In this document: in pieces, positions 1-12,484 of the stretch
How the letters are laid out: each line of letters opens with the position of its first letter
Numbering within the stretch: the first letter of the stretch is position 1
Translations under genes and position numbers: made by a program
From: Planctomycetota bacterium
Lineage (GTDB): Bacteria; Planctomycetota; SZUA-567; H5-PLA8
NCBI GenBank assembly: GCA_045863855.1
Contig: BTVV01000160.1
Location: 1 to 12,484 of the forward strand
Direction of reading: 5' to 3'
Length of the DNA stretch: 12,484 nucleotides
The notes under the pieces: generated by a model
Seen by the model: only the letters and a program-made list of their open reading frames with translations
What the model was told of the DNA's origin: nothing
Databases searched by the model: none

Positions 1-34
1 CGGGCCGCGGAAGCAGGGACGCCTCCGCGGCCCG
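1..34 (-). terminator. Putative intrinsic terminator or stabilising hairpin downstream of the ECF sigma/anti-sigma operon
   Basis: CGGGCCGCGGA (1-11) is the exact reverse complement of TCCGCGGCCCG (24-34). The stem extends with a G-U pair on the minus strand and lies 27 nt after the stop codon at 62. Any U-tract would fall outside the window. Confidence 0.5.
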
Positions 35-61
35 CGGGCCGGTCCATGGAATGGGCGGATT

Positions 62-1978
62 CTACTTCTTATAGAGCGGCATGTAGCGGTAGTAGACTTC
101 CAGGCACATCACGGCGAGCGCGGTGCTCATGACGCGGCTGTCGTCCGCGCCGGCGCCCGTCGGATCCCAGCTTCCGTCTTCGGCGCCGCCCACGCGTTGG
201 CCGGGCAGCAGCGCGCCCTTCATGCCATCGTTCCAAAGCTTCCAGTGTTCGCCGCCGCCTTGGAACATGCCCAGGGTGGCGTAGTAGCCGAAGTACAGAT
301 TGAAGGGGTACTTCTTGGGCACCAGCTTATTCTTCATGATGTTCAACGGTCCGGCGACGCCGACCTGATCGAGCGTCGCGCCGGCGATGTGCATGCGGCA
401 CAGCGCGCAGGCGGCCATCACGGCGTACGAGCCCTTGCCCTTTTCCACGGCTCCGGGGCTGCCGCGGTAGGCCATGCGCCCGCCTTCCCAATCGTAGTCG
501 GGAACCGGATCGGTGGCCTTGAACGCGCCAAGGTCCTGCCCGATGTTGAGCCAGTTGATGGTGCCTTCGAAGGCCGCCGGATCGACCATCAGGCCCGCGA
601 CCTTGCCCGACTTCAGGGCCATCACGTTCCAGGCCATGACCGAAGAGTCGTTGGTCTTGCCGCCGGGGCCGTAGTCCCAAGCGAGGCGGTCGGACTCGCC
701 GTCGAGATGAATCTGGCCGAACTCGACGCCCTTGATGGCCTTCTGCGCGGCGTCTTTGGTGCGCGGGATGCGGCCCATGCCGGCGGCTTCGCACAGCGCC
801 ATGGTGGCGATGCCTTGAGTGTAGTTGCTGGCGACCCAGCGCCCTTCATGCGCGCGCGCGCCCTGCTCCTTGCCCATGTTCTCGATCAGCCAGTCCACGC
901 CCCTGCGAACGTTATCCTTATACTTGCCGACTTTTTCCGTGTGCCCCGCACCGAGAAATGCCAGCAGCGCGAAGCCGGTCATGGCCACATCGCCCTGCAT
1001 CCCGGTGTGCTTGCCGCCGTGGCGCGCGTTGTCCCAGCGCCCGTCGGCTTCCTGGTTGCGGGCGAGCCATTCGAGGCCCTTGTCGACGGCCGACTCGGTA
1101 TCGCGTCCACCGCCGTTGATGATGGAAAGCTTGCGCCGGCCGCCGCCCATGCGGTGCCCGAAAGCTCCGCCGCCGCCGCCGCCCATGCCCAGCGCGGCGA
1201 CCGTACCGACGCCGCCCAGTTGCACGTCGCTGATCGCGTTCTCGTCGCCGGTGGCCGTGGCATCCTGCATTTCATCGGCCGTCTCGACGTGGTCGGCCAC
1301 CTCGACTTCTTCGTGGACGACAACCACTTGGTCGCTGACCTGCTCGGTCGGCGCTTCCACCTTGACCTGCTTGAAGATGTCGCGGGGCTTCTGCTCTTCC
1401 TTCTCTTCTTCCTGTTCGGGCGCGCGGGCCAGATCGGTCACGATCACGGTGTCGTTGACTTTGGCGCGGAGCACGGCCATGCCGATCAAGGTAATCAGCA
1501 TCAGCAGGAGCGCGTGAAAGGCTCCGCTGATGACCCACCACGGCGCGGCGCCCAGTGCGCCGGCCAGCCGCGAGGAGCCGTCCCCTTCGCCGGCTTCGGC
1601 GCCGACCAATTCCCCTTCGCCTTCGGGAGCTTCGCCCTCGGCCCACGGCAGCGGAACCTGATCGACGGAAACGTCCTCGGGCGCGAGGACTTCCTGCCCG
1701 CGGCCGGGCGTGCTGAGGCGTTCCATCTGCTGGTCGATGTCGGAGAGGCGCTGCGAAGCGCGCTCGTCGAAGCCGGGATTGATCTGCAGCGTCCCAATGG
1801 TGCGGTCCATCAGGCCGACGAGCTGCTGGCGGCGGTCGTAGGCCGCGCGGCAGTGCGGATTCGACTTGACCAGATGCTTCATGTACTGCGCTTCGGTGGC
1901 CGAGAGGTTGCCCTCGACGAAGTCCCGCAGCTTTTCCTGAAAGAGGGCCAGTTCCATCTGGGCGTTCGAACCGCTCAT
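62..1978 (-). CDS. Membrane-anchored anti-sigma-like protein with C-terminal prenyltransferase/squalene-oxidase-repeat (alpha/alpha barrel) domain, 638 aa
   Basis: RBS AAAGGAG at 1992-1986 and an ATGA overlap with the ECF sigma stop. The N-terminus LRDFVEGNLSATEAQYMKHLVKSNPHCRAAYD resembles a zf-HC2/ZAS anti-sigma domain. TM helix APWWVISGAFHALLLMLITLIGM, then acidic and Gly-rich linkers. QW-type repeats (AVDKGLEWLARNQEADGRW, GQRVGGAEDGSWDP) and the ending STALAVMCLEVYYRY are typical of planctomycete prenyltransferase-repeat proteins. Confidence 0.8.
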   Translation of the reverse strand: MSGSNAQMELALFQEKLRDFVEGNLSATEAQYMKHLVKSNPHCRAAYDRRQQLVGLMDRTIGTLQINPGFDERASQRLSDIDQQMERLSTPGRGQEVLAPEDVSVDQVPLPWAEGEAPEGEGELVGAEAGEGDGSSRLAGALGAAPWWVISGAFHALLLMLITLIGMAVLRAKVNDTVIVTDLARAPEQEEEKEEQKPRDIFKQVKVEAPTEQVSDQVVVVHEEVEVADHVETADEMQDATATGDENAISDVQLGGVGTVAALGMGGGGGGAFGHRMGGGRRKLSIINGGGRDTESAVDKGLEWLARNQEADGRWDNARHGGKHTGMQGDVAMTGFALLAFLGAGHTEKVGKYKDNVRRGVDWLIENMGKEQGARAHEGRWVASNYTQGIATMALCEAAGMGRIPRTKDAAQKAIKGVEFGQIHLDGESDRLAWDYGPGGKTNDSSVMAWNVMALKSGKVAGLMVDPAAFEGTINWLNIGQDLGAFKATDPVPDYDWEGGRMAYRGSPGAVEKGKGSYAVMAACALCRMHIAGATLDQVGVAGPLNIMKNKLVPKKYPFNLYFGYYATLGMFQGGGEHWKLWNDGMKGALLPGQRVGGAEDGSWDPTGAGADDSRVMSTALAVMCLEVYYRYMPLYKK

Positions 1979-2589
1979 GCTTCGGCTCCTTTAGTGTGGC
2001 TTTCCTGGGCGCGGGCCTTGACGGCATCGGCGGGCGCGGCGCTGGTGATGATCGACGCCAAGCGCTGCTCCAGCAGATGGTCGGCCCTCGACAACTGGCT
2101 CTTCACGGTGCCCAAGGGGATGCCGAGCTTGTCGGCGATATCCTGATAGGGGAGGTGTTCCCAGTAGCGGAAGACGACCACGGTGCGCAGGTCTTCGGGC
2201 AGGCTGTCGACGGCGCGCGCGACGACCTCGCGCATGTCGACCCGGTCGAAACCGCCCGTGGCGGCGCCCGGATCCTGCGTCTGTTCCTTGGCCGACTTCT
2301 CGCGTACCCGCCGCCGCCGCAAATCCAGCGCGTTGCAGCGATTGATCTGGCGGATCCAGATTCCAAGCTTCAGCGGATCCTGAAGCCGGTTCAGATCCCG
2401 GTACGCGCGGCACAAGGACTCCTGCGCCACGTCTTCGGCGTCCTGGAGGTTGCCCAGAACGGCGAAACCCTGGTTCACCAAGTCGGCCCGGAAACGTTCG
2501 ACCAACAACCAGAACTGATCGAGCGGCACACCGGCCGGATCGGCGCGGTGCCGGATCAACTGCTCGATCATCAGGTCCGTGGTCGGCAT
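1975..2589 (-). CDS. ECF (sigma-70 group IV) RNA polymerase sigma factor, about 204 aa
   Basis: Region 2 motif DAEDVAQESLCRAY...WIRQINRCNALDLRRRR and region 4 motif LPEDLRTVVVFRYWEHLPYQDIADKLGIPLGTVKSQLSRA. Start placed at ATG 2589 because GAGGGG lies 7 nt upstream (ORF track starts at 2667). Confidence 0.93.
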   Translation of the reverse strand: MPTTDLMIEQLIRHRADPAGVPLDQFWLLVERFRADLVNQGFAVLGNLQDAEDVAQESLCRAYRDLNRLQDPLKLGIWIRQINRCNALDLRRRRVREKSAKEQTQDPGAATGGFDRVDMREVVARAVDSLPEDLRTVVVFRYWEHLPYQDIADKLGIPLGTVKSQLSRADHLLEQRLASIITSAAPADAVKARAQESHTKGAEA

Positions 2590-2656
2590 GTCCGGTCCCC
2601 TCGGGCATTCACTCACCAAGCCGTCTGAAGAGTGCGCCGAGTTCTCGATATTTTGG

Positions 2657-2682
2657 AACGAACCCACAATTCCAGAAGTTCA
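2657..2682 (-). promoter_or_regulatory. Candidate ECF-dependent (autoregulatory) promoter
   Basis: Minus strand reads TGAAC-N17-CGTT, matching the AAC (-35)/CGT (-10) pattern of ECF promoters, about 70 nt upstream of the sigma start. Confidence 0.45.
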
Positions 2683-2819
2683 CATTGTGCAGGATTCGGG
2701 AAGGCATGGCAAGAGATGCTTGTGCGGAAAGATACGGTCCCAAGTCGGCGGCTGAGCGCATCGTCCCTATAGAAGGTAGAGGATCGAGGCATGCACTGGT
2801 GCGAAAAATGTTTGCTGCC

Positions 2820-2848
2820 TTGACACTTCCGAGAGGGCGACCTAGGAT
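2820..2848 (+). promoter_or_regulatory. Sigma-70-type promoter for the coiled-coil/BRCT gene pair
   Basis: TTGACA (2820-2825), 17 nt spacer, TAGGAT (2843-2848), upstream of RBS GGAGG (2912-2916). Confidence 0.65.
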
Positions 2849-2923
2849 CGCTAAGTCTTAATTTACCATGATTTTGGTGCGAAGCGCCCACGTGCTTTCG
2901 TGGGGCTGCTTGGAGGCTTGCCG

Positions 2924-4222
2924 ATGCAAGATAACGGCCCGCTGATCGCGTTGATTTTCCTGATTCTACTGACCGCCGTATTCGGTCTCTTCGCGCATCA
3001 GGCATACAACGAACTGATGGGCGACGACCCGGAGGGGTTGCAGGGCGAGAGCACCAAGCTGGAGGCCGAGATCAAGCGCCAGCGCGAAGATCATCTCGTG
3101 GTGGAAGACGAGATCCGCAAAGTACAGATCGAGATTGAACAGAAGAAGGTGGAGATTCAGACCCAGCTGAACCGCCGCGACCGCTTCACGCGCTTGGCGG
3201 AAGACTACGATTCCGCACTGAAAGGCCGGCAGGCGATCGTGAACTCGGGGCGCTTGAGCCGCGGCGCCGCCACCGAACTCGGCGTGAAGGTGGCCGAAAA
3301 GAAGGACGAGACGCGCGCTTCGATCCGGCGCGACGAGAACGACACGCGCGAACGCGCGGATGCGCAGGTTCGCGAAATGGAAACGGCTCGCGAAAACGCC
3401 GTGAATCGCGCGGTCGAAGAACGCAAGAAGCATGAGCAGGGACAGAAGACGTTCCGGATGCAGAAGAATCTGGAGCAGACGGAAGTCGACGAATACAAGC
3501 GCCAACTCGACGCGCTGACGCAGCGCGAGGTGGAGCGCGCGACGGTGATGACGGAGATCGACGGCAAGGTCATCCTGTCGGATCCGGTGAACAATACGAT
3601 CGTGGTGAGCTTGGGAACGGTGCACGGGGTTCAGAACGGCTTCCGCTTCGAGTGCTTCACCATCCGCCCAGGCAATCAGAAGGTCCACAAGGCGTTCTTG
3701 GAAGTGCGCAAGGCGCTGCCGAGCGTCTCGGAATGCATGGTGGTGGAGAAGAAGGTCGAGTTGCCGCGCGATCCGCTTTCGGATTACGTCGCGCCGGAGC
3801 CGGAGTACAAGTTCAGCCCGTATCACGAATCGGGCCGCACCGGCAGCCCGCTGCTGCCGCTTTCCGCGCGCCCCAAGGAAGCCATGCTGGGCATGAACAA
3901 GCTGGATCCCGTCGTCGAAGGCGACTTCATCCAGAACCCCTTCTACGCGCCGGGCAAGAAGTTCACCTACTACATCAGCGGCAGCAAGGCGATCGTACAG
4001 GGCGTGCAGAAGGGCGCGATCCACTACACCTGGCCGCACATCCAGCGCACGATCGAGTTCTACGGCGGCAAGGTGGTCGAGAACGTCGATCTGGGCGTCA
4101 ACTACATCATCGCGCAGAAGAACGCGAAAGACGACGACGCCGATCAGTTCTCGCGCGCCGTGACGCTGGGGCTGCCGGTGATCTACGAGTGGGAACTGTT
4201 CCGTTTCCTGGATCAGCGTTAA
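2924..4222 (+). CDS. Membrane-anchored coiled-coil protein with FlgT-C-like beta-barrel and C-terminal BRCT-like domain, 432 aa
   Basis: GGAGG lies 7 nt before ATG 2924. N-terminal hydrophobic helix PLIALIFLILLTAVFGLFA, then about 170 aa of E/K/R/Q heptad-rich sequence. EIDGKVILSDPVNNTIVVSLGTVHGVQNGFRFECF is FlgT-C-like. IEFYGGKVVENVDLGVNYII...AVTLGLPVIYEWELFRFL is BRCT-like. Confidence 0.8.
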   Translation: MQDNGPLIALIFLILLTAVFGLFAHQAYNELMGDDPEGLQGESTKLEAEIKRQREDHLVVEDEIRKVQIEIEQKKVEIQTQLNRRDRFTRLAEDYDSALKGRQAIVNSGRLSRGAATELGVKVAEKKDETRASIRRDENDTRERADAQVREMETARENAVNRAVEERKKHEQGQKTFRMQKNLEQTEVDEYKRQLDALTQREVERATVMTEIDGKVILSDPVNNTIVVSLGTVHGVQNGFRFECFTIRPGNQKVHKAFLEVRKALPSVSECMVVEKKVELPRDPLSDYVAPEPEYKFSPYHESGRTGSPLLPLSARPKEAMLGMNKLDPVVEGDFIQNPFYAPGKKFTYYISGSKAIVQGVQKGAIHYTWPHIQRTIEFYGGKVVENVDLGVNYIIAQKNAKDDDADQFSRAVTLGLPVIYEWELFRFLDQR

Positions 4223-4300
4223 GCCGCGCGTTTTCGCGGAACATGCCGGTAACTGGGCGAGCCGGGACATTCGACGGGTAACGGGGAAAGAAGCGCGACC

Positions 4301-6139
4301 ATGTCAACCAAACAAACGGTCATCTTCATCTTCATGCTCATCTTCCTCGCCGGGGCGCTGACGACCCTGGGGATGTGGTTCCACTATCGCCTCGAAGTGG
4401 ACATCAAGAAGAAGACCATGACGCAGATCGGCGCCGATACGACGCTCGCCAAGAAGAAGCGCGACGGCCTGCGCAAGCTGTTGAACAACCCGGAGACGCC
4501 GGACGCCGACCTTTCGGGCCGCCTACAGGCCGTGCAGAAGGAAGCCGACCAGAAGTACGCGGAAGTGTGGGTCGACCAGCTCGCCGTCGAACCCGCCTAC
4601 CGCGCCAAGCTGCCCGAGATCGAAACCGAATGGAAGGCCTCGGGCGGGGAATGGACGAAGATCTACGAAGAGTGGACGAAGAAGAACGGACAGATTCGCG
4701 AAGCGATGGACGCCTTCGTCAAGGTACAGGTCGACGCGATCAAGCGCGTGGACGACGCGAAGGTGACGCTGGCTCAGGAACTGACCACCGAAGAGACGCA
4801 GCGCAAGCAGTTCGTCGAAGAACATCACAAGTGGGAAGACGAATTGGGCGGGATTCGCTACGAAGGCGAGGATCTGCTCGACAAGATCAACCACGTGACG
4901 CGCGAGTTGGAGCGGACGAGCGAGCAGGAAGTGGACGGCCGGATCATTCACTCGACGCCGTCGCTGGCCTTGGTGACGGTGGATTTGGGCTATCAGCAAG
5001 GCGCGCAGAAGGGCATGCGCTTCCAGATCTTCTCGGGCAAGCACACCGCCCCGGTCTTGAAGGGCGAGCTGATGCTGACCGAGATTCACGCGGCGAGCAG
5101 CGAAGCGGTGGTGCTCCCGACGGTAGGCCGACCGAAGTGGGATCCCCAGACGGGCTACGAAGCGGCCGATCCGAGAATGCGCTATTCGCCGTTGAGCGCC
5201 ACGGGCCCCGAAGAATCCGAGCCGATGCCGCTCGAAAAAATGAAGAGCAAAAAGGATCTGGTCGACGAGATCCGGCTGGAACAGATCAAGCGCGAACTGG
5301 GCCCCGAAGAAGTGACCCGGATCCTGGAAGAGCGGGCCGCGCCGACGCAGCCCCCCCTGGCGCTGGGCAAGGGCTTCGATCCGATCATCGAAGGCGACTG
5401 GATCTCGAACACCGAGTTCGTGCGCATCGAGACGGAACGCGAATGGCAGCGCAAGAGCACCGAAGAGTTGATGAGCCTGAAGGAAATCAACCTCGGTTCG
5501 CTCACGCTGTACCTGGCGGAGACGATCCGGCCGTACCGGCGCGAATTCCTGAAGCGCCTGTGCGAACGCAACCGCTGCAAAGCCGTGGACGGCATGTCGC
5601 CGGACGTGGACTTCATCGTCACCACGACGACCACCGGCCGCGAAGACCTGCTGGAACGTGAACTGGAGCCGCTGAAGGAAAAGCAGGACGTCTCGCCCGA
5701 AGTGGCGGCCAAGCGCATCACGCTGGCGGCGCTGAAGGAAGGCCGTAAGTTCGGTTCGCGCGTACTGACCGAAGAGGAACTGGAAGCGTACTTCATCAAG
5801 CGCCAGCGCAAGAACGAGTTGGCCAAGGGTAAAGCGATTCAGCCCGGGCAGTACATCTTCTTCGTAGTGGGCGAAACGAGGCGCCGGTCGGTGCGCGAGA
5901 CCGGCCTGTACATTAAGGAACACGGCGGCGCGATCGCCGAATCGCTCGACGCCGGCGTGGACTACGTCGTCGTGGGCGCCGGCCTGACCGACGCGAAGCT
6001 CGATAAGAAGTCGGGGCGGCTGTACTACCCTGGCCAGGACGCTCCGGAAGGCGCCGTTCCGTTCTACGAAGCGATGAAGCAGATGGGGCTGAAGATCCTG
6101 CGCGAAGAAGAACTGGATCACTTCTTCGGCCAGGACTAA
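4301..6139 (+). CDS. Paralogous membrane-anchored coiled-coil protein with FlgT-C-like barrel and two BRCT-like domains, 612 aa
   Basis: N-terminal TM helix, coiled coil, then EVDGRIIHSTPSLALVTVDLGYQQGAQKGMRFQIF. Two BRCT-like units: CKAVDGMSPDVDFIV...FGSRVLTEEELEAYF and IKEHGGAIAESLDAGVDYVVVG...MGLKILREEELDHFF. Host-like GC-rich codon usage. Confidence 0.8.
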   Translation: MSTKQTVIFIFMLIFLAGALTTLGMWFHYRLEVDIKKKTMTQIGADTTLAKKKRDGLRKLLNNPETPDADLSGRLQAVQKEADQKYAEVWVDQLAVEPAYRAKLPEIETEWKASGGEWTKIYEEWTKKNGQIREAMDAFVKVQVDAIKRVDDAKVTLAQELTTEETQRKQFVEEHHKWEDELGGIRYEGEDLLDKINHVTRELERTSEQEVDGRIIHSTPSLALVTVDLGYQQGAQKGMRFQIFSGKHTAPVLKGELMLTEIHAASSEAVVLPTVGRPKWDPQTGYEAADPRMRYSPLSATGPEESEPMPLEKMKSKKDLVDEIRLEQIKRELGPEEVTRILEERAAPTQPPLALGKGFDPIIEGDWISNTEFVRIETEREWQRKSTEELMSLKEINLGSLTLYLAETIRPYRREFLKRLCERNRCKAVDGMSPDVDFIVTTTTTGREDLLERELEPLKEKQDVSPEVAAKRITLAALKEGRKFGSRVLTEEELEAYFIKRQRKNELAKGKAIQPGQYIFFVVGETRRRSVRETGLYIKEHGGAIAESLDAGVDYVVVGAGLTDAKLDKKSGRLYYPGQDAPEGAVPFYEAMKQMGLKILREEELDHFFGQD

Positions 6140-6158
6140 GCAGGTCCGAAGGAAGCGG

Positions 6159-6194
6159 ATGCACGCGGGCGGCCTTTCAGCCGCCCGCTTGCAT
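6159..6194 (+). terminator. Hairpin/putative terminator after the BRCT-like gene pair
   Basis: ATGCA-C-GCGGGCGGC-[CTTTCA]-GCCGCCCGC-T-TGCAT, 20 nt after the stop at 6139. The U-tract is weak. Confidence 0.5.
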
Positions 6195-6223
6195 TACATG
6201 CGTATCGAATCCCGTGGACTCGC

Positions 6224-6252
6224 TTGCCAGGTGCGAGCGATACCGGCATATT
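6224..6252 (+). promoter_or_regulatory. Sigma-70-type promoter of the tRNA-Gly locus
   Basis: TTGCCA (6224-6229), 17 nt spacer, CATATT (6247-6252), then a GC-rich discriminator-like GGTGCCTC. The -10 ends 14 nt before the tRNA 5' end. Confidence 0.55.
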
Positions 6253-6266
6253 GGTGCCTCTGGAGC

Positions 6267-6305
6267 GCGGGCGTAGCTCAGCGGTAGAGCGTTGGCTTCC
6301 CAAGC
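6267..6305 (+). tRNA. tRNA-Gly(CCC), 5' half only (truncated at integration junction)
   Basis: GCGGGCG-TA-GCTC-AGCGGTA-GAGC-G-TTGGC-TT-CCC-AA-GC gives the acceptor 5' strand, a complete D-arm and an anticodon loop with CCC at 6299-6301. The anticodon stem should continue CAA but reads ACC. No TTCGA T-loop, CGCCCGC acceptor strand or CCA follows. Confidence 0.9.
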
Positions 6306-6333
6306 ACCTGCGCGTATCGCAAAGTCCTTCGCG

Positions 6334-6398
6334 TGTAATAAGTTACATCATCGGCATACTCTTGATTTTGAGGTTTGGCATACTCGTTTGGCATACTC
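6334..6398. repeat. att-site arm region: direct repeats (putative integrase arm-binding sites) and a short palindrome
   Basis: GTTTGGCATACTC occurs twice in tandem (6373-6385, 6386-6398), with a third core GGCATACTC at 6353-6361. Palindrome TGTAA-TAAG-TTACA at 6334-6347. Confidence 0.75.
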
Positions 6399-6406
6399 AC
6401 CGCACC

Positions 6407-8575
6407 TTACTCCAAGTGAATTTCCGTTTTGTAGTTACCGCGATCAACTTTCCAAGAGACCTTTGATATGACTGTGCGGACGGGCATGGGGCGTCGTCCT
6501 TCAATGCCTATAGGTATAAGCTCTTTTACGGCCTGACCGGCACGGTAGCTGTCAACCAACCAGCCATCGATATGCAATACTCCGTTTTTCTGTAGGCGGC
6601 CCAGTTCATATTGGGTGCGTTTTACGTGGTTGGTCAGGAGCTCTTCATCAGTGGCCAATGCGTCTTCGCGGGAAGTTCGATCTACAGCCTGTTCCGTGCC
6701 GGGTAAGCTCTCAGGGTAAGGCCAAGAGTTCTTGCGTAGCCAAAGCCGATAGAGATTCCCAAGATCAAGGATCTGTGTTCGCTTTAGGCTTGGGTCGATA
6801 CGGTCTTGGTCGGGGAGCCCAGTCAAGACTCCTTTAAAATCGTAACCCGCGTGTGTGTGGTGCGGCATTCCGACTGATGCGGACAGGCGATAATCGGCAG
6901 GAATCGCGAGCGTCATGCGCACTTGCTGTTCGACGATATCATACGGGTCAGCCACGCTTGCATCAAAGGGCTCCCCATTCCAGCGCCAGGATCCGGGCCG
7001 TTCGTTCAGGGGTTCCATGCGAAGCTGGGGGATATAAATGGTCCCGTCGTCCCAAACCTCGTACTGATTCCCTTCGAAGGATGTTGTCCAGCCTCCAGCG
7101 GTGAGAACTTCAACGCGAAGAGGTAAACGCATCACGGAAAAGTCCTCGGCTCCCGAAAGCCAGGAAAGCAACTGAGGGAAAATCGGTCGGCTTTTCTGCG
7201 TCCTTGGAAAATTCTCGAAAGACGTGCCCTCAAGAAAATTCCAGGTCGGATTGATACGCCAAGCGCAAAGAACCTTGGGATATTTCATCCCGGCGCGAAT
7301 AAGGCCTAGGGCATCAGGTTCATTCATTTCGCCCCAGAATCGGCGAAACCCTTCAAATTCTTCAAATGTCCAGCATCGTATGATGTCGCCTCCTGCAGAC
7401 GATGCCCTACGCTCGATCATTACTCGGTCACCGCAACCCACGATTTGGGTTGCGATGTTCCGCGCGGATTCGTTGTAGTGGCCTCCCGACACGACGGGCG
7501 TTGCAAAAGTGGTCTTCGCATTCCCTCCCGCGGCAAAGGGAATCGAGATTCCATCGCGCTCGTAGCGCGTCGACACGGCTTCGAGTACGGCCGTCCAGCG
7601 ATCAATGCCGCTCCCGTCTTGGCTCCAGGCCGGACGTACGTTTACTGCCCAACCTCCGGCCGTCTTTAGAATGCGGTCCATCACATCGAGAAGCGCTAGG
7701 CCGTCCACGGCCATGTCACGCCCTTTTCGGGCAAAGCCAACGGTGTGGTTGTACTGGCCTACCGCGGCGTCGAATGTGAAGATGCTATATGTGTCTAGAT
7801 TACTTGCGAAAGTCTCGGGCCATTCTAGGTGCGCGGGGGAATGCGGCAGCCAGGGCCAGACTAAGCCATCTTCGGACTCCGGATTAAAGTCGGGTCCATA
7901 GTGTGTGCGGAAGTATTCGAAGATAAACCCAATCGTCCAATTTGTAGCGACATCGGTCGGCCGGGTGTCAGGATCGGGTACAGGCGCATCGGCGGCGCGG
8001 CCGTAGTCGGGATGAACGCTGAAGCACGGCTTCCCGTTCGCATCGAAGATGCAGTTCGGGCGTCCACCGGGATTGAAATGGGGCATCTCGCCCATTTCGA
8101 ATCGAGCGTAACCCGTCTGCGGATCGCGGACGTACCGGCCCTTGATCCGAACTTCCTCCAGGTCGTACCGATCATCCAACAATCGCACGCTCAGGCCGTC
8201 GTTGTCTTTATCGTGGGCAACGTCCACGATCTTCCCGATGAATGAGTAGTTTTCGAACTTTCCTTTCACGACCTTGGCGATGGCCATTCGGCGACCAAGC
8301 AATAAGTCTTTCATGGGTCCGTCGGGATTGAATGCTACCGTGTTCATACGATGATCTAATTCGCCGGCATTGGTTCGAATCGAGATACGCGCTTCTGCGG
8401 GCTCAGCCCCGTACTTCTCAATCTCGACGTATTGAACCGTCCAATAGTCCGAGGAAATGGTTGTTGTGCCGGAGGACTCGTCTCCTTCAACAACAGGCAC
8501 AATGATCATTGCGCGGAGCTGCGTTGCTCGTTTATCCACAACTCCGGCATTTTCGATGATTACATTTGCAGACAT
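6407..8575 (-). CDS. Phage-related protein, putative baseplate hub/tail-tip protein (Mu gp44/P2 gpD/T4 gp27-like architecture), about 722 aa
   Basis: Long clean ORF with GGAGG (8590-8586) 10 nt before ATG 8575. The N-terminal pattern FIGKIVDVAHDKDNDGLSVRLLDDRYDL and the C-terminal pattern GVLHIDG..YRAGQAV..VRTVISKVSWKVDRGNYKTEIHLE resemble the two ends of baseplate hub proteins. The CDS is well supported; the function is inferred. Confidence 0.55.
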   Translation of the reverse strand: MSANVIIENAGVVDKRATQLRAMIIVPVVEGDESSGTTTISSDYWTVQYVEIEKYGAEPAEARISIRTNAGELDHRMNTVAFNPDGPMKDLLLGRRMAIAKVVKGKFENYSFIGKIVDVAHDKDNDGLSVRLLDDRYDLEEVRIKGRYVRDPQTGYARFEMGEMPHFNPGGRPNCIFDANGKPCFSVHPDYGRAADAPVPDPDTRPTDVATNWTIGFIFEYFRTHYGPDFNPESEDGLVWPWLPHSPAHLEWPETFASNLDTYSIFTFDAAVGQYNHTVGFARKGRDMAVDGLALLDVMDRILKTAGGWAVNVRPAWSQDGSGIDRWTAVLEAVSTRYERDGISIPFAAGGNAKTTFATPVVSGGHYNESARNIATQIVGCGDRVMIERRASSAGGDIIRCWTFEEFEGFRRFWGEMNEPDALGLIRAGMKYPKVLCAWRINPTWNFLEGTSFENFPRTQKSRPIFPQLLSWLSGAEDFSVMRLPLRVEVLTAGGWTTSFEGNQYEVWDDGTIYIPQLRMEPLNERPGSWRWNGEPFDASVADPYDIVEQQVRMTLAIPADYRLSASVGMPHHTHAGYDFKGVLTGLPDQDRIDPSLKRTQILDLGNLYRLWLRKNSWPYPESLPGTEQAVDRTSREDALATDEELLTNHVKRTQYELGRLQKNGVLHIDGWLVDSYRAGQAVKELIPIGIEGRRPMPVRTVISKVSWKVDRGNYKTEIHLE

Positions 8576-8593
8576 AAGAAACATTCCTCCAGC

Positions 8594-8631
8594 CACTGGC
8601 GCCCGGTGTCGTTAATCACCGGGCGCCAGTG
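8594..8631. repeat. Perfect 15-bp inverted repeat immediately upstream of the hub-like gene RBS
   Basis: CACTGGCGCCCGGTG (8594-8608), loop TCGTTAAT, CACCGGGCGCCAGTG (8617-8631). Confidence 0.9.
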
Positions 8632-8789
8632 CAATCCGCTTTACCTCGCGGCTAAGGGCTAGGGCCTTGGTGGAGATTTCCAATCCCAAGCTGCGGGAGT
8701 TATGGGCGCCTGCCATCGCGATTGCTCGCGGGGGGCGCGCCTCACCCAAGCCACGTCCCGCTTGGCTGGGTTCTTGCCCCCGGAAGTTC

Positions 8790-9920
8790 TTACGAATTGA
8801 CTAGCGCGGGCGTCGGTGCAGCGGGCGGCGCTGGTGGCGCTTCCATCATGTGCCCACAGGAAATGCAGATGACTTTTTCGGGATTCTCAACGCTCTTTGC
8901 CAGGTGGCGCGACCAACAAGGCGAACGGGAACAATGCGGCTTGCCGTCCGCTCCGATCAAGACCTTGTTGATATCGGGCTCTGCGTAGGCCGCGCGCCGC
9001 GCTTCGGGCGGCGTGATGGTCTGGTGGGAGATTCCGATATTGGCGAAGGCGCTGGGTGGCGTATTGGGTGGGGCGTCCTGGGACATTCCACAAACGGAGC
9101 ACACCAGGGCTCCGCCCTCTGTATTTCGGCGCTGAAGCTTCCGCGACTGGCAAGATTTCCCCGCACAGCGCAAGGTTCCGTCTGCGTGCATCGTCGCCAG
9201 TTGATGGCTGGAAGGGGTCTCCACTGCGCCAGCGGCTTCCATCGCTCTGGCCTCGATAGCACGGATCCCATGGCGTTCCAGGGCGCTGATTTCGTTCGTA
9301 TGTTCGGAAAGCGCCGCGCGCAGGTCATGCAGCGTGGGCTTGGCCTTCCACATATTTTCGCTGGCGGCCTGCGCAATGAGTGCATGATCGACCGCCCAGG
9401 CATGGGGAACGGTCGCGCTATCTCGAAGCGCGAGCATTTGCAAAGAGAGTGTGGACAGCAGCGGATGGGTGCTCTTCGTCAGAGCCGGTTCGACCAACGC
9501 TTCACAGCCCAGCTTGGCCAGCGCTACAGCCAGGCCGGCAAGGTGAAAGGCTGCCTGCTTGGCCCACTTCGCGCGCTCGGCGGCGAGTTCGGCTCCCCGC
9601 TTTTCGAGCTTCGTGCGTCGGGCGTTCAACTCTTCTTCGGCAGCCTGATGCAGCGCTTGGCGCGTGGCTTCGATGGCGGTTTCGAGCGACTCCAGTTCCT
9701 CTTCCAGGACGGCTTGATCTTTGGCAAGAGCCTTGAGCTGGCTTTCGTCGGCTTTACGCCCCAAGATCGATTCGACGCGCAACGACCTGGCGTCGTCGCG
9801 CAAGGCGTCTAGTGTCTCGGTCTTTTTTCTGCGGATTTCCTCCAGGGACTTCAGCCGCGCAGCAACAGCGGCGGGTGTGGAGGACTCTCCGCGAATTAAG
9901 GAAATGAGTTTGTCGAACAT
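8790..9920 (-). CDS. Coiled-coil protein with two tandem C4 zinc-ribbon-like repeats, 376 aa (hypothetical)
   Basis: RBS AAGGAG (9936-9931) 10 nt before ATG 9920 (ORF track over-extends to 10091). N-terminal ~125 aa are heptad-rich. The C-terminus has two CX4C-X16-CX2C motifs. Confidence 0.75.
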   Translation of the reverse strand: MFDKLISLIRGESSTPAAVAARLKSLEEIRRKKTETLDALRDDARSLRVESILGRKADESQLKALAKDQAVLEEELESLETAIEATRQALHQAAEEELNARRTKLEKRGAELAAERAKWAKQAAFHLAGLAVALAKLGCEALVEPALTKSTHPLLSTLSLQMLALRDSATVPHAWAVDHALIAQAASENMWKAKPTLHDLRAALSEHTNEISALERHGIRAIEARAMEAAGAVETPSSHQLATMHADGTLRCAGKSCQSRKLQRRNTEGGALVCSVCGMSQDAPPNTPPSAFANIGISHQTITPPEARRAAYAEPDINKVLIGADGKPHCSRSPCWSRHLAKSVENPEKVICISCGHMMEAPPAPPAAPTPALVNS

Positions 9921-9974
9921 GGTATCGATTCTCCTTTGCAATGGGCGCCTTATGCGGTGCCTTCTAATACCGCG

Positions 9975-9999
9975 GCCCCGCCGTACTTCTGGGCGGGGC
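9975..9999. repeat. GC-rich hairpin between capsid and coiled-coil genes
   Basis: GCCCCGCC (9975-9982) pairs with GGCGGGGC (9992-9999), 9-nt loop, 24 nt after the capsid stop. No U-tract on the minus strand, so mRNA stabilisation or processing is more likely than termination. Confidence 0.5.
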
Positions 10000-10023
10000 G
10001 ACGGCTCCGAGCATCGGCAGTGC

Positions 10024-11391
10024 TTACGCGCCGGCGTTTTTGTGTATCCGGCGCCAATCCATGGCCTTTGCGGCGCATGCGAGGTGCGCACGGAAATCTA
10101 CCGAGAGCCTTTCGAAGGAGGGCATGGAGTCCATTACCGGTTCCTGCTGCCCGCTCAGGAAACAAACCTCGGCGGCGCCTTCGCCGTTCTCCCCGCCCGT
10201 GGCGAGGTACCAGGCCGTGGTGGAAACGTTCCCATGGAAACCGGTCTGGCTGAGACGCGGCTCCACTTCCACCTGGAACTTGTTTTTGAAAAACTGGTTT
10301 TCCGAGACGAAGAGGTTCGGATTGGCCAGGGTGTTCGCGAGGTATTCCAACTCGGGCGGGACGAGTAAGATTTTCGGCTCCACGTCGAGCGGTTCCGCCG
10401 CGAATTCTGTATCGTTCGGCGCCGGGGTGTTCGCCTGCTTGCGGAAGTCCGAGATGGCCACCGGCAAGCTGGTCGCGCTGAGGACCGAACCGGGGGTACC
10501 GGTGCGTAAGTTGCCGTGGTCGCCATGGAAAAGCGCGGTTCCATCGCTCATCGTCGGGTTGGCCAGTAAATGGGAATAGATCAGCCTGGCCGGGAGCACG
10601 TTTCCCGCTTTGCCGAATGGTCGAATCATGCGCTTCAGGGCTTCCAAGTCATCATTGATCATCATTTGAAGCGTGAAGCTGATCCGGCGCGCATAGACGG
10701 CGAGCGCAAAGGTTTCGGCGCGGTCGCTGAGTTTGGAATCGAAGATTTCCCCGTTCTCGCCCGTCTCGCGCAGCTGCGCGAAGTCCGAAAGCTGAACGCG
10801 TGAATTGGTTTTGAAGTCCTCGGCGCTGGTAACGGTCGCCCAGCTGCGCCAGGTTGGGCGCGAGGCGTTGTAGCCTTCCATCAGCGCCTTGTTGGCCAAT
10901 GCGGAAAGCAGGTTGGGCAGGTCCCCGCTGGCGTTGGCTGCGGCGGCTCGGTATTGAAAATTGGGGCTGAGGACTTCGCGAACGGCGTCGGACGGTGCCA
11001 ATCGCCACGGGGTGTATCCTGCGGAACGAAGCATCTCCTGGCACATTTCGGGGAGACGAAGGCGCATCGGCTCGATGCCGTCGCCGCTGGTGTCGTGCCT
11101 GTAGCCAGCGCGCGCGACAAGGCCACGCTGCATGGCCGTGAATTTCCGCTCGGCGCGGCTGGGTCCTACTTCAAAGTCTCGCATGGGTGGTTCCTTTCTG
11201 AATGCGGTGTTTAAACGCCGCTTTTTGGGTTTCGGATTGTGGTCGCGCATGCGCGCTGGCTTTGGTTCGTCGTCGTCAGGTTCGGCCGGTAAGGGAGTCG
11301 GCGGCACGGCGCCTGGGGGAATGTTTCTCCCGGCGCTGCTTTCTGGCGTGACAACGCGGGTTCGGAGTGGTTTGGGCTGGAACTCTTTCAT
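10024..11391 (-). CDS. Phage major capsid protein (HK97 fold; Mu gpT-like / capsid moiety of ClpP-capsid fusions), 455 aa, or 386 aa from the alternative start at 11184
   Basis: Family motifs SGDLPNLLSALANKALMEGY, TWRSWA...DFK, GENGEI, ETFALAVYARRISFTLQMMINDDL, NPTMSDGTALFHGDHGNL, PKILLVPPELE, VEPRL, TAWYL and AKAMDWR. Confidence 0.9.
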   Translation of the reverse strand: MKEFQPKPLRTRVVTPESSAGRNIPPGAVPPTPLPAEPDDDEPKPARMRDHNPKPKKRRLNTAFRKEPPMRDFEVGPSRAERKFTAMQRGLVARAGYRHDTSGDGIEPMRLRLPEMCQEMLRSAGYTPWRLAPSDAVREVLSPNFQYRAAAANASGDLPNLLSALANKALMEGYNASRPTWRSWATVTSAEDFKTNSRVQLSDFAQLRETGENGEIFDSKLSDRAETFALAVYARRISFTLQMMINDDLEALKRMIRPFGKAGNVLPARLIYSHLLANPTMSDGTALFHGDHGNLRTGTPGSVLSATSLPVAISDFRKQANTPAPNDTEFAAEPLDVEPKILLVPPELEYLANTLANPNLFVSENQFFKNKFQVEVEPRLSQTGFHGNVSTTAWYLATGGENGEGAAEVCFLSGQQEPVMDSMPSFERLSVDFRAHLACAAKAMDWRRIHKNAGA

Positions 11392-11942
11392 GGAATCGAC
11401 TCTACGTTCGTTTTTGTGGGGTGATGCAAAAGGCTGCGCGAAGGCTGCAAAATGCCGCGGTCGGGCTCTTCGATTTCGTCAACGAGGTACCATTTACCGC
11501 CGGGGGCCGGCAGGGCAGGAAGCGTTTTGTCTCGGAGCGCTCGCGCGACGGTTCGTTCGTGCTGTCCCCGCTCCCTGGCAATTTGCTTGATGCTTTTGGC
11601 CTGCCTATTCGCGCGATCTACGGTGGCAGCAGTGGCGCCGGCGTCGGTTACCTGGATGTAGTGTGGCTCCTTCTCGCCTATGCGCTCAAGCCATCGCATT
11701 CTGAAGGCGAGTTCCCAGGCTTCGGCGAGCAGCATTTCGTAGGCTGCACGGGTGTTGGGCTCGGCGAGGCGAAAATAGTTTTCCAGCCATTCCTTGACGA
11801 ACTCTTCCCGCGGCGGGTCCAGAACGGCGCGGCCCTCCAGCTTCGCATTGATAGGCAGGAAGAGCACGTTACGAACGATCCGGCGCGCGCGGTCCAGGAC
11901 GGGCGCGCGAAGCCATTCAAAGTAAGCTCGGTCTGTATCCAT
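11388..11942 (-). CDS. DNA-binding protein with C-terminal excisionase/MerR-like (HTH_17-type) winged helix, 184 aa
   Basis: KSIKQIARERGQHERTVARALRDKTLPALPAPGGKWYLV fits the Xis/AlpA-like HTH plus wing pattern. Starts 6 nt after the upstream stop; its stop overlaps the capsid ATG (ATGA). Confidence 0.6.
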   Translation of the reverse strand: MDTDRAYFEWLRAPVLDRARRIVRNVLFLPINAKLEGRAVLDPPREEFVKEWLENYFRLAEPNTRAAYEMLLAEAWELAFRMRWLERIGEKEPHYIQVTDAGATAATVDRANRQAKSIKQIARERGQHERTVARALRDKTLPALPAPGGKWYLVDEIEEPDRGILQPSRSLLHHPTKTNVESIP

Positions 11943-11948
11943 GTTCTG

Positions 11949-12484
11949 CTACTTGCCCAATGCCTTCACTAGGCGTTCGGCTTCGACATGGTTGATCGGT
12001 TGATCTTCCAGCTTGCGTGCGCGCCCTGCCAATAGCTCTGCGTTTTGCCCAGCGGCTATTCGGCGGTGGAATTCTTCATCCACGCATCGCTGGAGCGCCC
12101 GGTTTCCGGGCGCCTCAAAGTTTCCCAGGCGGCTATCAAACGCAATCCAGATTGCCCCGTCCACGAACTGGTAAACCCATTGTGGCGGCGGGCGCCGTCG
12201 CTTCGTAGGCGGTGGCGGTGGTGTTTTCGCGGTACGGCTAGCCAGATTGATCGGCGCTTCGTCCGCGTGGGGGATACCGTCTCGGCGGTGGCTGTGGTGG
12301 TGGATTATTCGCGTGGGTTGGGCGTGAATTTCCATGCTCTGCACGGGCGGCGAGCTATCAACCGGTGGGGCTGGCGCCGGCCGGACCGTCGAGGTGGCAG
12401 CGGAACGGAACGGCATCGGAACGGAAGTGCCGATTTCACGCGGCGTGACTCGCGGAAACGCCGTGAGTTGCACGCCTGCGGACT
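11949..12484 (-). CDS. Hypothetical Pro-rich protein, probably 5'-truncated by the window edge
   Basis: The frame is open from the window edge to the TAG at 11949. It is co-oriented and tightly packed with the downstream gene. A disordered Pro-rich region precedes a ~75 aa folded-looking C-terminus. Confidence 0.55.
   Translation of the reverse strand, partial: SAGVQLTAFPRVTPREIGTSVPMPFRSAATSTVRPAPAPPVDSSPPVQSMEIHAQPTRIIHHHSHRRDGIPHADEAPINLASRTAKTPPPPPTKRRRPPPQWVYQFVDGAIWIAFDSRLGNFEAPGNRALQRCVDEEFHRRIAAGQNAELLAGRARKLEDQPINHVEAERLVKALGK

Follow-up and report, generated by a model that had tools for sequence, protein, structure and literature searches.

The window, the whole 12,484-nt stretch of DNA analysed here, is the entire contig C160 of G000, a 287-contig metagenome-assembled genome (MAG) of an uncultured planctomycete that is 93.9% complete. 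Host chromosome runs to position 6305; past it lie phage-like genes on the minus strand, directed at the junction, and GC content falls from ~62% to 52-55% (Table 1). The same-genus genome G002 has the empty site: its contig C1 joins both flanks through an intact tRNA-Gly(CCC) gene, with the counterpart of window 1-6305 on one side and, on the other, a flank with dnaK that in G000 lies on contig C129.

Table 1. Features on both sides of the tRNA-Gly(CCC) junction in the window
Feature	Position	Strand	Basis or remark
Host BRCT-domain gene, left chromosomal flank	4301..6139	+	PF00533; window 1-6305 aligns 94.4% to G002
Predicted host tRNA promoter, TTGCCA-17 nt-CATATT	6224..6252	+	Score 9/12; hexamers kept in G002
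Stranded 39-nt 5′ part of tRNA-Gly(CCC), host half of the probable attL	6267..6305	+	Identical to the intact gene of G002
Anticodon loop TTCCCAA, presumed 7-bp crossover overlap region	6297..6303	+	Identity ends 2 nt past the loop
Element arm (P′)	6306..6406	+	Palindrome 6334-6347; GGCATACTC direct repeats at 6353, 6377 and 6390
Tail hub-like gene (722 aa), pointing toward the stranded tRNA half	6407..8575	-	Structural look-alikes
376-aa coiled-coil and zinc-ribbon gene	8790..9920	-	Weak phrog_3616, weak PF08271
386-aa major capsid protein without fused protease part	10024..11184	-	phrog_4523, E 7.5e-80; PF25209; NF045541
Two element reading frames, 184 aa and at least 174 aa	11388..12482	-	Element runs off the contig end

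The host side ends in the first 39 nt of the tRNA gene that is intact at the orthologous site of G002. These span the acceptor 5′ strand, the D arm, the 5′ strand of the anticodon stem (TTGGC, 6292-6296) and the loop, followed by GC (6304-6305), and the match to G002 breaks at 6305/6306. The predicted sigma-70-like promoter is the sole site of its kind in 6100-6700 (shuffle mean 0.4), and in G002 its spacer has diverged between unchanged hexamers. A first-pass annotation had read promoter and tRNA as intact through the anticodon loop, with identity ending there, and the comparison with G002 bears this out. ARAGORN calls zero tRNAs in the window and no tRNA-Gly(CCC) across G000. The pattern of this 5′ half followed by a wrong base occurs in one of 401 genomes of the phylum, G000 itself, so the junction is not a chance match. 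Section 18 of PMC8371274 gives the loop as the overlap region for integrase crossover; the end point shared by the loci compared below was selected for by the search pattern.

The end of the hub-like gene lies 101 nt downstream of the stranded half, convergent with it and with no terminator called between, so an antisense transcript from the stranded promoter into this gene is geometrically possible. The predicted read-through RNA (6258-6420) has an unremarkable fold (z +0.99), and RNA runs contain only 0.08-0.11 of the window's words. Upstream, a 9-bp GC hairpin (6165-6188), not called as a terminator, separates the BRCT gene from the tRNA promoter. The two host genes in 2900-6139 share an N-terminal membrane anchor, a coiled coil and a C-terminal BRCT-like domain; an ECF sigma factor gene and a prenyltransferase-like anti-sigma gene are transcribed away from them, and the arrangement is conserved in the family.

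The hub-like protein has no Pfam, PHROG or NCBIfam match. In the Atlas it resembles tail proteins and GPD/VgrG folds (TM 0.40-0.43 by query); it has three homologues at 31-35%, and as a query by itself it retrieves zero viral loci. The capsid gene, the 376-aa gene and the hub stand side by side. Among Atlas clusters with a Pfam label, the one closest to the 376-aa protein is P4 Psu (0.76; 20% of members), a lead only and at most a weak hint of a satellite. The capsid matches cover profile positions 289-644 of phrog_4523 and 278-634 of NF045541. Capsid relatives occur at 10 viral loci (27-34%) and in 23 of 62 genomes of the class, and the 12 capsid-relative loci scanned hold no tRNA. Pfam, PHROG and NCBIfam searches gave no assignment for the last two reading frames, the PF03354 terminase has no match in G000, and ARAGORN calls no tRNA across the element's 6.2 kb in the window (6306-12484). 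The element is proposed to be a compact prophage or a capsid-encoding satellite. An Rfam GlsR6 match at 10607-10656, within the capsid gene, was rejected as far under the cut-off.

Arm repeats and assembly of the junction

The three GGCATACTC repeats sit 48-93 nt beyond the crossover and are putative integrase-binding arm sites. Only 12 triple 9-mer clusters of this sort occur in 6.93 Mb; this is one, and another is the arm of a standard island on contig C83. A group II intron at the junction was rejected: the element starts with ACCTGC at 6306 and has no Rfam intron match.

A metagenome scan for the stranded half of this tRNA returned three loci, one a chance match and two from one metagenome. 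Locus L254 has a host gene, a promoter, the 5′ half and the same crossover, followed by GGCATACTC twice at the 13-nt period seen in the window. At L256, GGCATACTC-type repeats flank the 5′ half on both sides, so the arm family can carry a 5′ half between its arms. With host-like genes upstream (secretin, phosphonate ABC, lspA) and no integrase, L256 may be a relic or else a junction within a stack. L255 and L231 were rejected as stranded-half loci, being chance pattern matches. IMG/VR holds zero matches to the junction pattern, to the 5′ half with this tRNA's stem (zero in GTDB genomes as well) and to the tandem arm pattern; the last is found in 2 of 301 phylum genomes, of which the other match is at control level and has no tRNA nearby.

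The junction was examined in contigs of four sequencing runs from four studies (X1-X4), of which X1 is possibly the source of the assembly. In X2, a single unbranched contig crosses 6267-8408 and the host flank ends on the 39-nt half; the half passes into the element with no exit toward a 3′ half. Contigs of X1 and X4 begin at 6276, one letter under the 31-letter bridging rule, and X3 has no junction contig among the records listed. Element and host contigs have similar depths in three of the four runs (7.1/7.8 in X1, 7.9/6.8 in X2, 8.9/7.2 in X4; depth is not copy number). In the X1 graph, contigs share the half as a node (depth 20.3) that has two entries, the host contig (7.8) and a second upstream contig of 869 nt (7.6), and two exits, the element (7.1) and a 37-nt piece of depth 6 that reaches 7 nt beyond 6305. 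The X4 graph likewise branches at the half. The identical 39 nt are present in four family members, and the extra branches of X1 and X4 could therefore stem from a different organism. The end of the second X1 entry gives the best in-register match to the L256 arm among 136 upstream 30-mers (a 7/8 block, tied with one other), which may lend weak support to its being the far end. The loose end in X1 has no match in G000 at up to 6 mismatches and none in JGI metagenomes. A misassembly at 6305, which the first-pass annotation had named as what would overturn its account, is unlikely, as the X2 contig runs unbranched across the junction.

The far end and parallel sites

G000 contains no far end for this element and no integrase assignable to it. 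None of the 18 PF00589 tyrosine integrase matches in G000 is on C160, the right end of C160 overlaps no other G000 contig, and the genome has no further arm pair of this type with GGCATAC or G[CT]ATACT. An integrase on C158, cut at the contig end, was rejected because it reads as a host Xer-like gene.

Two tRNA-Gly(CCC) 3′ halves are present in G000, at C129:2161-2208, where the host's own 3′ half lies, and at C144:9810-9857. Both are preceded by a common arm with tandem CCGCCAA repeats, which return behind the C144 half near a 418-aa integrase; GGYATACT is in neither. The C129/C144 core is a perfect 8/8 inverted repeat, against 3/8 if their arm is paired with the window arm. By arm motif and core symmetry, both were rejected as the far end of this element and belong to a standard 3′-carrying island family. 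The complementary 3′ half that the first-pass annotation had proposed to look for exists twice and marks another island family, so that check would mislead. The standard layout, in which a 3′ fragment is displaced and the promoter-proximal tRNA is restored, fits the C129 and C144 ends and is not what the window junction displays. The simplest map would run from the host 5′ half through this element and one or two standard islands to the host 3′ half on C129; we infer the position of C144 in this stack. In G002, L261:1798-2035 holds a stray island arm and a loop-mutated 3′ half of Gly(CCC); these lie 250 nt ahead of a stranded Leu(CAA) half, 66 kb from the tRNA-Gly and in the opposite orientation.

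Two further orphan tRNA 5′ halves occur in G000, for Arg(TCT) and Leu(CAA). The Arg(TCT) half and its intact gene are 16.6 kb apart on one contig (C46:17329-33980, L070), and the element between is complete and satellite-like, with an integrase beside the intact gene at its far end, a replication initiator, DnaB, a tape measure, an endonuclease and TerS; the site is unoccupied in G002. The Leu(CAA) half is at C197:3980-4023, and the intact gene stands behind an integrase and matching arm repeats at C83:24659-25374. G002 has the same Leu(CAA) layout within one contig (C1:1456943-1625470), its ends 168 kb apart. A standard island is stacked behind each of the Arg(TCT) and Leu(CAA) sites. The three reverse-type sites of G000 compare with 10 clear and 3-4 doubtful 3′ fragments, though the numbers are small. 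DNA polymerase, ligase and topoisomerase-like genes lie near the Leu(CAA) far end in G000.

An unbroken attP is provided by the IMG/VR phage L028 (L029 is identical), which has a 32% hub homologue: in order, an integrase, arm repeats, a 41-nt 5′ half of tRNA-Ser(GCT), arm repeats and tail genes. In the viral records L225 and L229, an integrase precedes a 5′ half of Gly(CCC). Hub relatives in G003 and G007 have short T-arm-like matches beside the hub instead of a 5′ half, and with relatives so mixed the hub gene is no predictor of orientation.

Several related arrangements were seen along the way. Contig C167 of G006 (L263), another family member, has an Arg(TCT) 5′ half at 2951, the intact gene at 6966 and a displaced 3′ piece at 16090, a reverse-type element stacked on a standard one. 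G000 has a 26-tRNA array at C1:23667-28178, genus-wide, with a hub paralogue ~30 kb away and no Gly(CCC) called in it; the counterpart array in G001 (C2, L059) gives 31 ARAGORN calls. At C140:12264-15140 (L073), an intact tRNA-Ala(CGC) lies 600 nt ahead of a 37% hub paralogue that sits where the contig ends, and a displaced Ala 3′ piece is on C151 near an integrase.

A wider survey looked for Gly(CCC) 5′ halves with a non-pairing base directly after them, a pattern that matched at least 116 GTDB loci and 11 IMG/VR loci. Among the matches listed, 43 of 116 GTDB loci and one variant start with GTGCGA and are group II introns, and all six of those tested match RF02012. These introns (L108:4024-6714 and 42 other GTDB loci among the matches listed) sit just past the anticodon loop, mostly in Beta- and Gammaproteobacteria, and hold an intact tRNA-Gly(CCC) ~750-900 nt inside, ahead of the intron ORF; a literature search on tRNA-carrying group II introns in tRNA-Gly(CCC) found nothing on point. 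From the other 73 loci, 49 genomes were searched (51 with flanks, minus the variant and one duplicate genome); some of these may not be att sites, and L146 resembles a degenerate full tRNA.

Among the matches listed, 16 of the 49 genomes have the intact gene on the contig and strand of the orphan half, 1.4-41 kb downstream of it; none has it upstream, and in eight it is on another contig. One genome has a different full tRNA 104 nt inside the element; eight have a 3′ half only, three of them with a replacement tRNA (one seen in part); and 16 have no 3′ half. By two patterns, 24 of these 49 listed genomes, mostly fragmented MAGs, lack an intact copy, and every resolvable case kept a complete tRNA-Gly(CCC). 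Where attR sites were surveyed, the tRNA is often directly preceded by an AT-rich arm, and in four examined loci an integrase lies just upstream and co-directional, as found with a small home-made profile that misses some. At L239, L242, L243, L244 and L248 an integrase directly follows the stranded 5′ half in the same direction, where the host tRNA promoter could drive it. In G460 (C7:174416-254233, L237) a reverse-type Gly(CCC) element is followed by ten displaced 3′ halves in a very long tandem array.

Readings of the junction

The junction is probably the attL of a phage-like element integrated in reverse orientation at the anticodon loop of tRNA-Gly(CCC), with the tRNA rebuilt at the far end. 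Here attP would consist of arm, 5′ half, loop and arm, and a tyrosine integrase would cross it over with attB within the 7-nt loop, so that attL retains the host promoter and 5′ half. A complete tRNA would be rebuilt at attR and transcribed from an element promoter or by read-through. The element would be stacked upstream of one or two standard 3′-carrying islands, the last ending on C129, and transcription may still start from the stranded promoter. The first proposal made from the window alone, a site-specific integration into the anticodon loop that leaves the host promoter and 5′ half behind, is supported by the empty site in G002, the arm repeats and the host half on C129; the same three observations argue against a simple decayed pseudogene. 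We infer restoration, since the far end and the integrase are absent from the assembly. In its favour stand the Arg(TCT) and Leu(CAA) sites of G000, the L256 repeats on both sides of a 5′ half, the L028 attP and the 16 survey genomes with the full layout; the X1 and X4 graphs would allow a rebuilt tRNA, whereas the X2 contig, with no such path, and the mixed hub relatives speak against it. The first-pass annotation had offered two fates for the tRNA. An element-supplied 5′ half is the one carried into the reading favoured here, and a split restored only on excision is disfavoured by the resolved survey cases, which keep the gene.

A different way of keeping the tRNA has a small chance of being correct: the element may split the gene with a short core and bring a complete replacement tRNA-Gly(CCC) in its unassembled part. 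Four of the 49 genomes among the matches listed point to this strategy (G483, G452, G462 and apparently G471), with ARAGORN calls ~100 nt inside the element in G483 and G452. A precedent is the Rhizobium phage vTRX32-1 at tRNA-Leu, as excerpted from PMC8631192, and the unbranched X2 contig also fits. However, the 6.2 kb of element contain no tRNA and the rest of G000 no tRNA-Gly(CCC), the L256 arm family holds a 5′ half between its arms, and X1 contains a second, identical 5′ half.

It is improbable that the tRNA is truly split without replacement, with GGG read by tRNA-Gly(UCC) and the CCC tRNA back only upon excision. tRNA-Gly(UCC) decodes GGG by wobble, G000 has two plausible UCC genes (C31 and the C1 array), and a MAG of this completeness lacks an intact tRNA-Gly(CCC), as X2 lacks an intact path. 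On the other hand, repeated tRNA halves break short-read contigs, which accounts for the missing copy; no resolved case among the 49 genomes (matches listed) is without a complete gene; and GGG makes up 19.9% of 98,212 Gly codons in long ORFs. Moreover, the C129 arm, with its other motif and its 3/8 rather than 8/8 symmetry, is not this element's end. An extended version, in which excision would switch GGG decoding and the stranded promoter would silence the hub and capsid genes by antisense, is a similarly long shot.

Still less probable is a deletion in a standard prophage, in which the end with the 3′ half and integrase was lost and the 5′ half came to abut DNA from the phage interior. No integrase stands beside the junction, the virion module seems incomplete and the terminase is missing, as a deletion might leave them, but the break falls exactly at the canonical crossover, and the arm repeats are at the usual distance with the same motif in independent metagenome contigs. 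Finally, a misjoin at the repeated 39-nt node, with the element coming from another replicon or a free circle, is hardly credible: short-read graphs cannot phase the branch node of X1 and X4, but X2 and the matching depths speak for continuity, the island ends on C129 show that the G000 site is occupied, and even a misjoined element would still carry a 5′ half.

Comparison with known systems

The reverse-orientation class, to which the element most likely belongs with its defining far end unseen, is already catalogued as a minority layout. Zhao and Williams (J Bacteriol 184:859), as cited in PMC6563490 and PMC1635311, reportedly gave the first description of such an element in 2002. Literature searches on planctomycete examples and on replacement of the promoter found nothing on point, and the excerpts of PMC11476347 and PMC8566455 say nothing of 5′-carrying sites.

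The closest archaeal parallel is provided by pTN3-like integrases, whose att site is the 5′ half (41 bp shared there) and whose tRNA is rebuilt off its original promoter, according to excerpts of PMC8371274 and PMC5495485. Section 18 of PMC8371274 describes such integrases with a 5′-half attB and calls the bacterial case seldom, as does the available part of PMC6563490. In the excerpted accounts the pTN3-like attP lies inside the integrase gene, which splits, whereas the window junction has no integrase piece and has lambda-like arm repeats. The ORF adjoining it is the end of the hub-like gene, and no fragment of a pTN3/SSV-type integrase was found.

The Rhizobium phage vTRX32-1 family likewise interrupts a host tRNA and strands its 5′ part, but uses a 12-bp core and a complete replacement tRNA, in the excerpt of PMC8631192; the window's 6.2 kb of element contain none. 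Group II introns at the same base of tRNA-Gly(CCC) leave an identical stranded 5′ half ending after TTCCCAAGC. Unlike the window element, with its ACCTGC start and no intron match, they have GTGCGA junctions and RF02012/RF00029 matches.

If the favoured reading is true, the sole tRNA-Gly(CCC) gene of this cell is built entirely from mobile DNA, its front from this element and its back from a stacked island, and an element promoter is needed. Annotators of such MAGs should probably read a "missing" tRNA-Gly(CCC) as a gap in the assembly. What the case adds is modest: one integrase family of this class gains its first arm motif, the survey shows three separate routes by which elements at tRNA-Gly(CCC) keep the tRNA, and a host genome has several reverse-type sites.

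The nearest catalogue is Islander (Hudson, Lau and Williams, PMC4383910), in the accessible part of which 2083 of 3919 islands are anticodon-centred and 159 of 3919 have a displaced 5′ tDNA fragment; its island lists may already include Gly(CCC) cases. Like the 5′-fragment islands of that excerpt, the window element has an orphan 5′ fragment on the promoter side, a presumed anticodon-loop crossover, an empty site in a relative and tandem stacking on the simplest map. It differs from the set that Islander requires, as excerpted, in that the regenerated tRNA and the integrase are absent from the assembly. Three reverse-type sites share the genome of its host, an uncultured planctomycete, against about 4% of islands in the accessible part of Islander.
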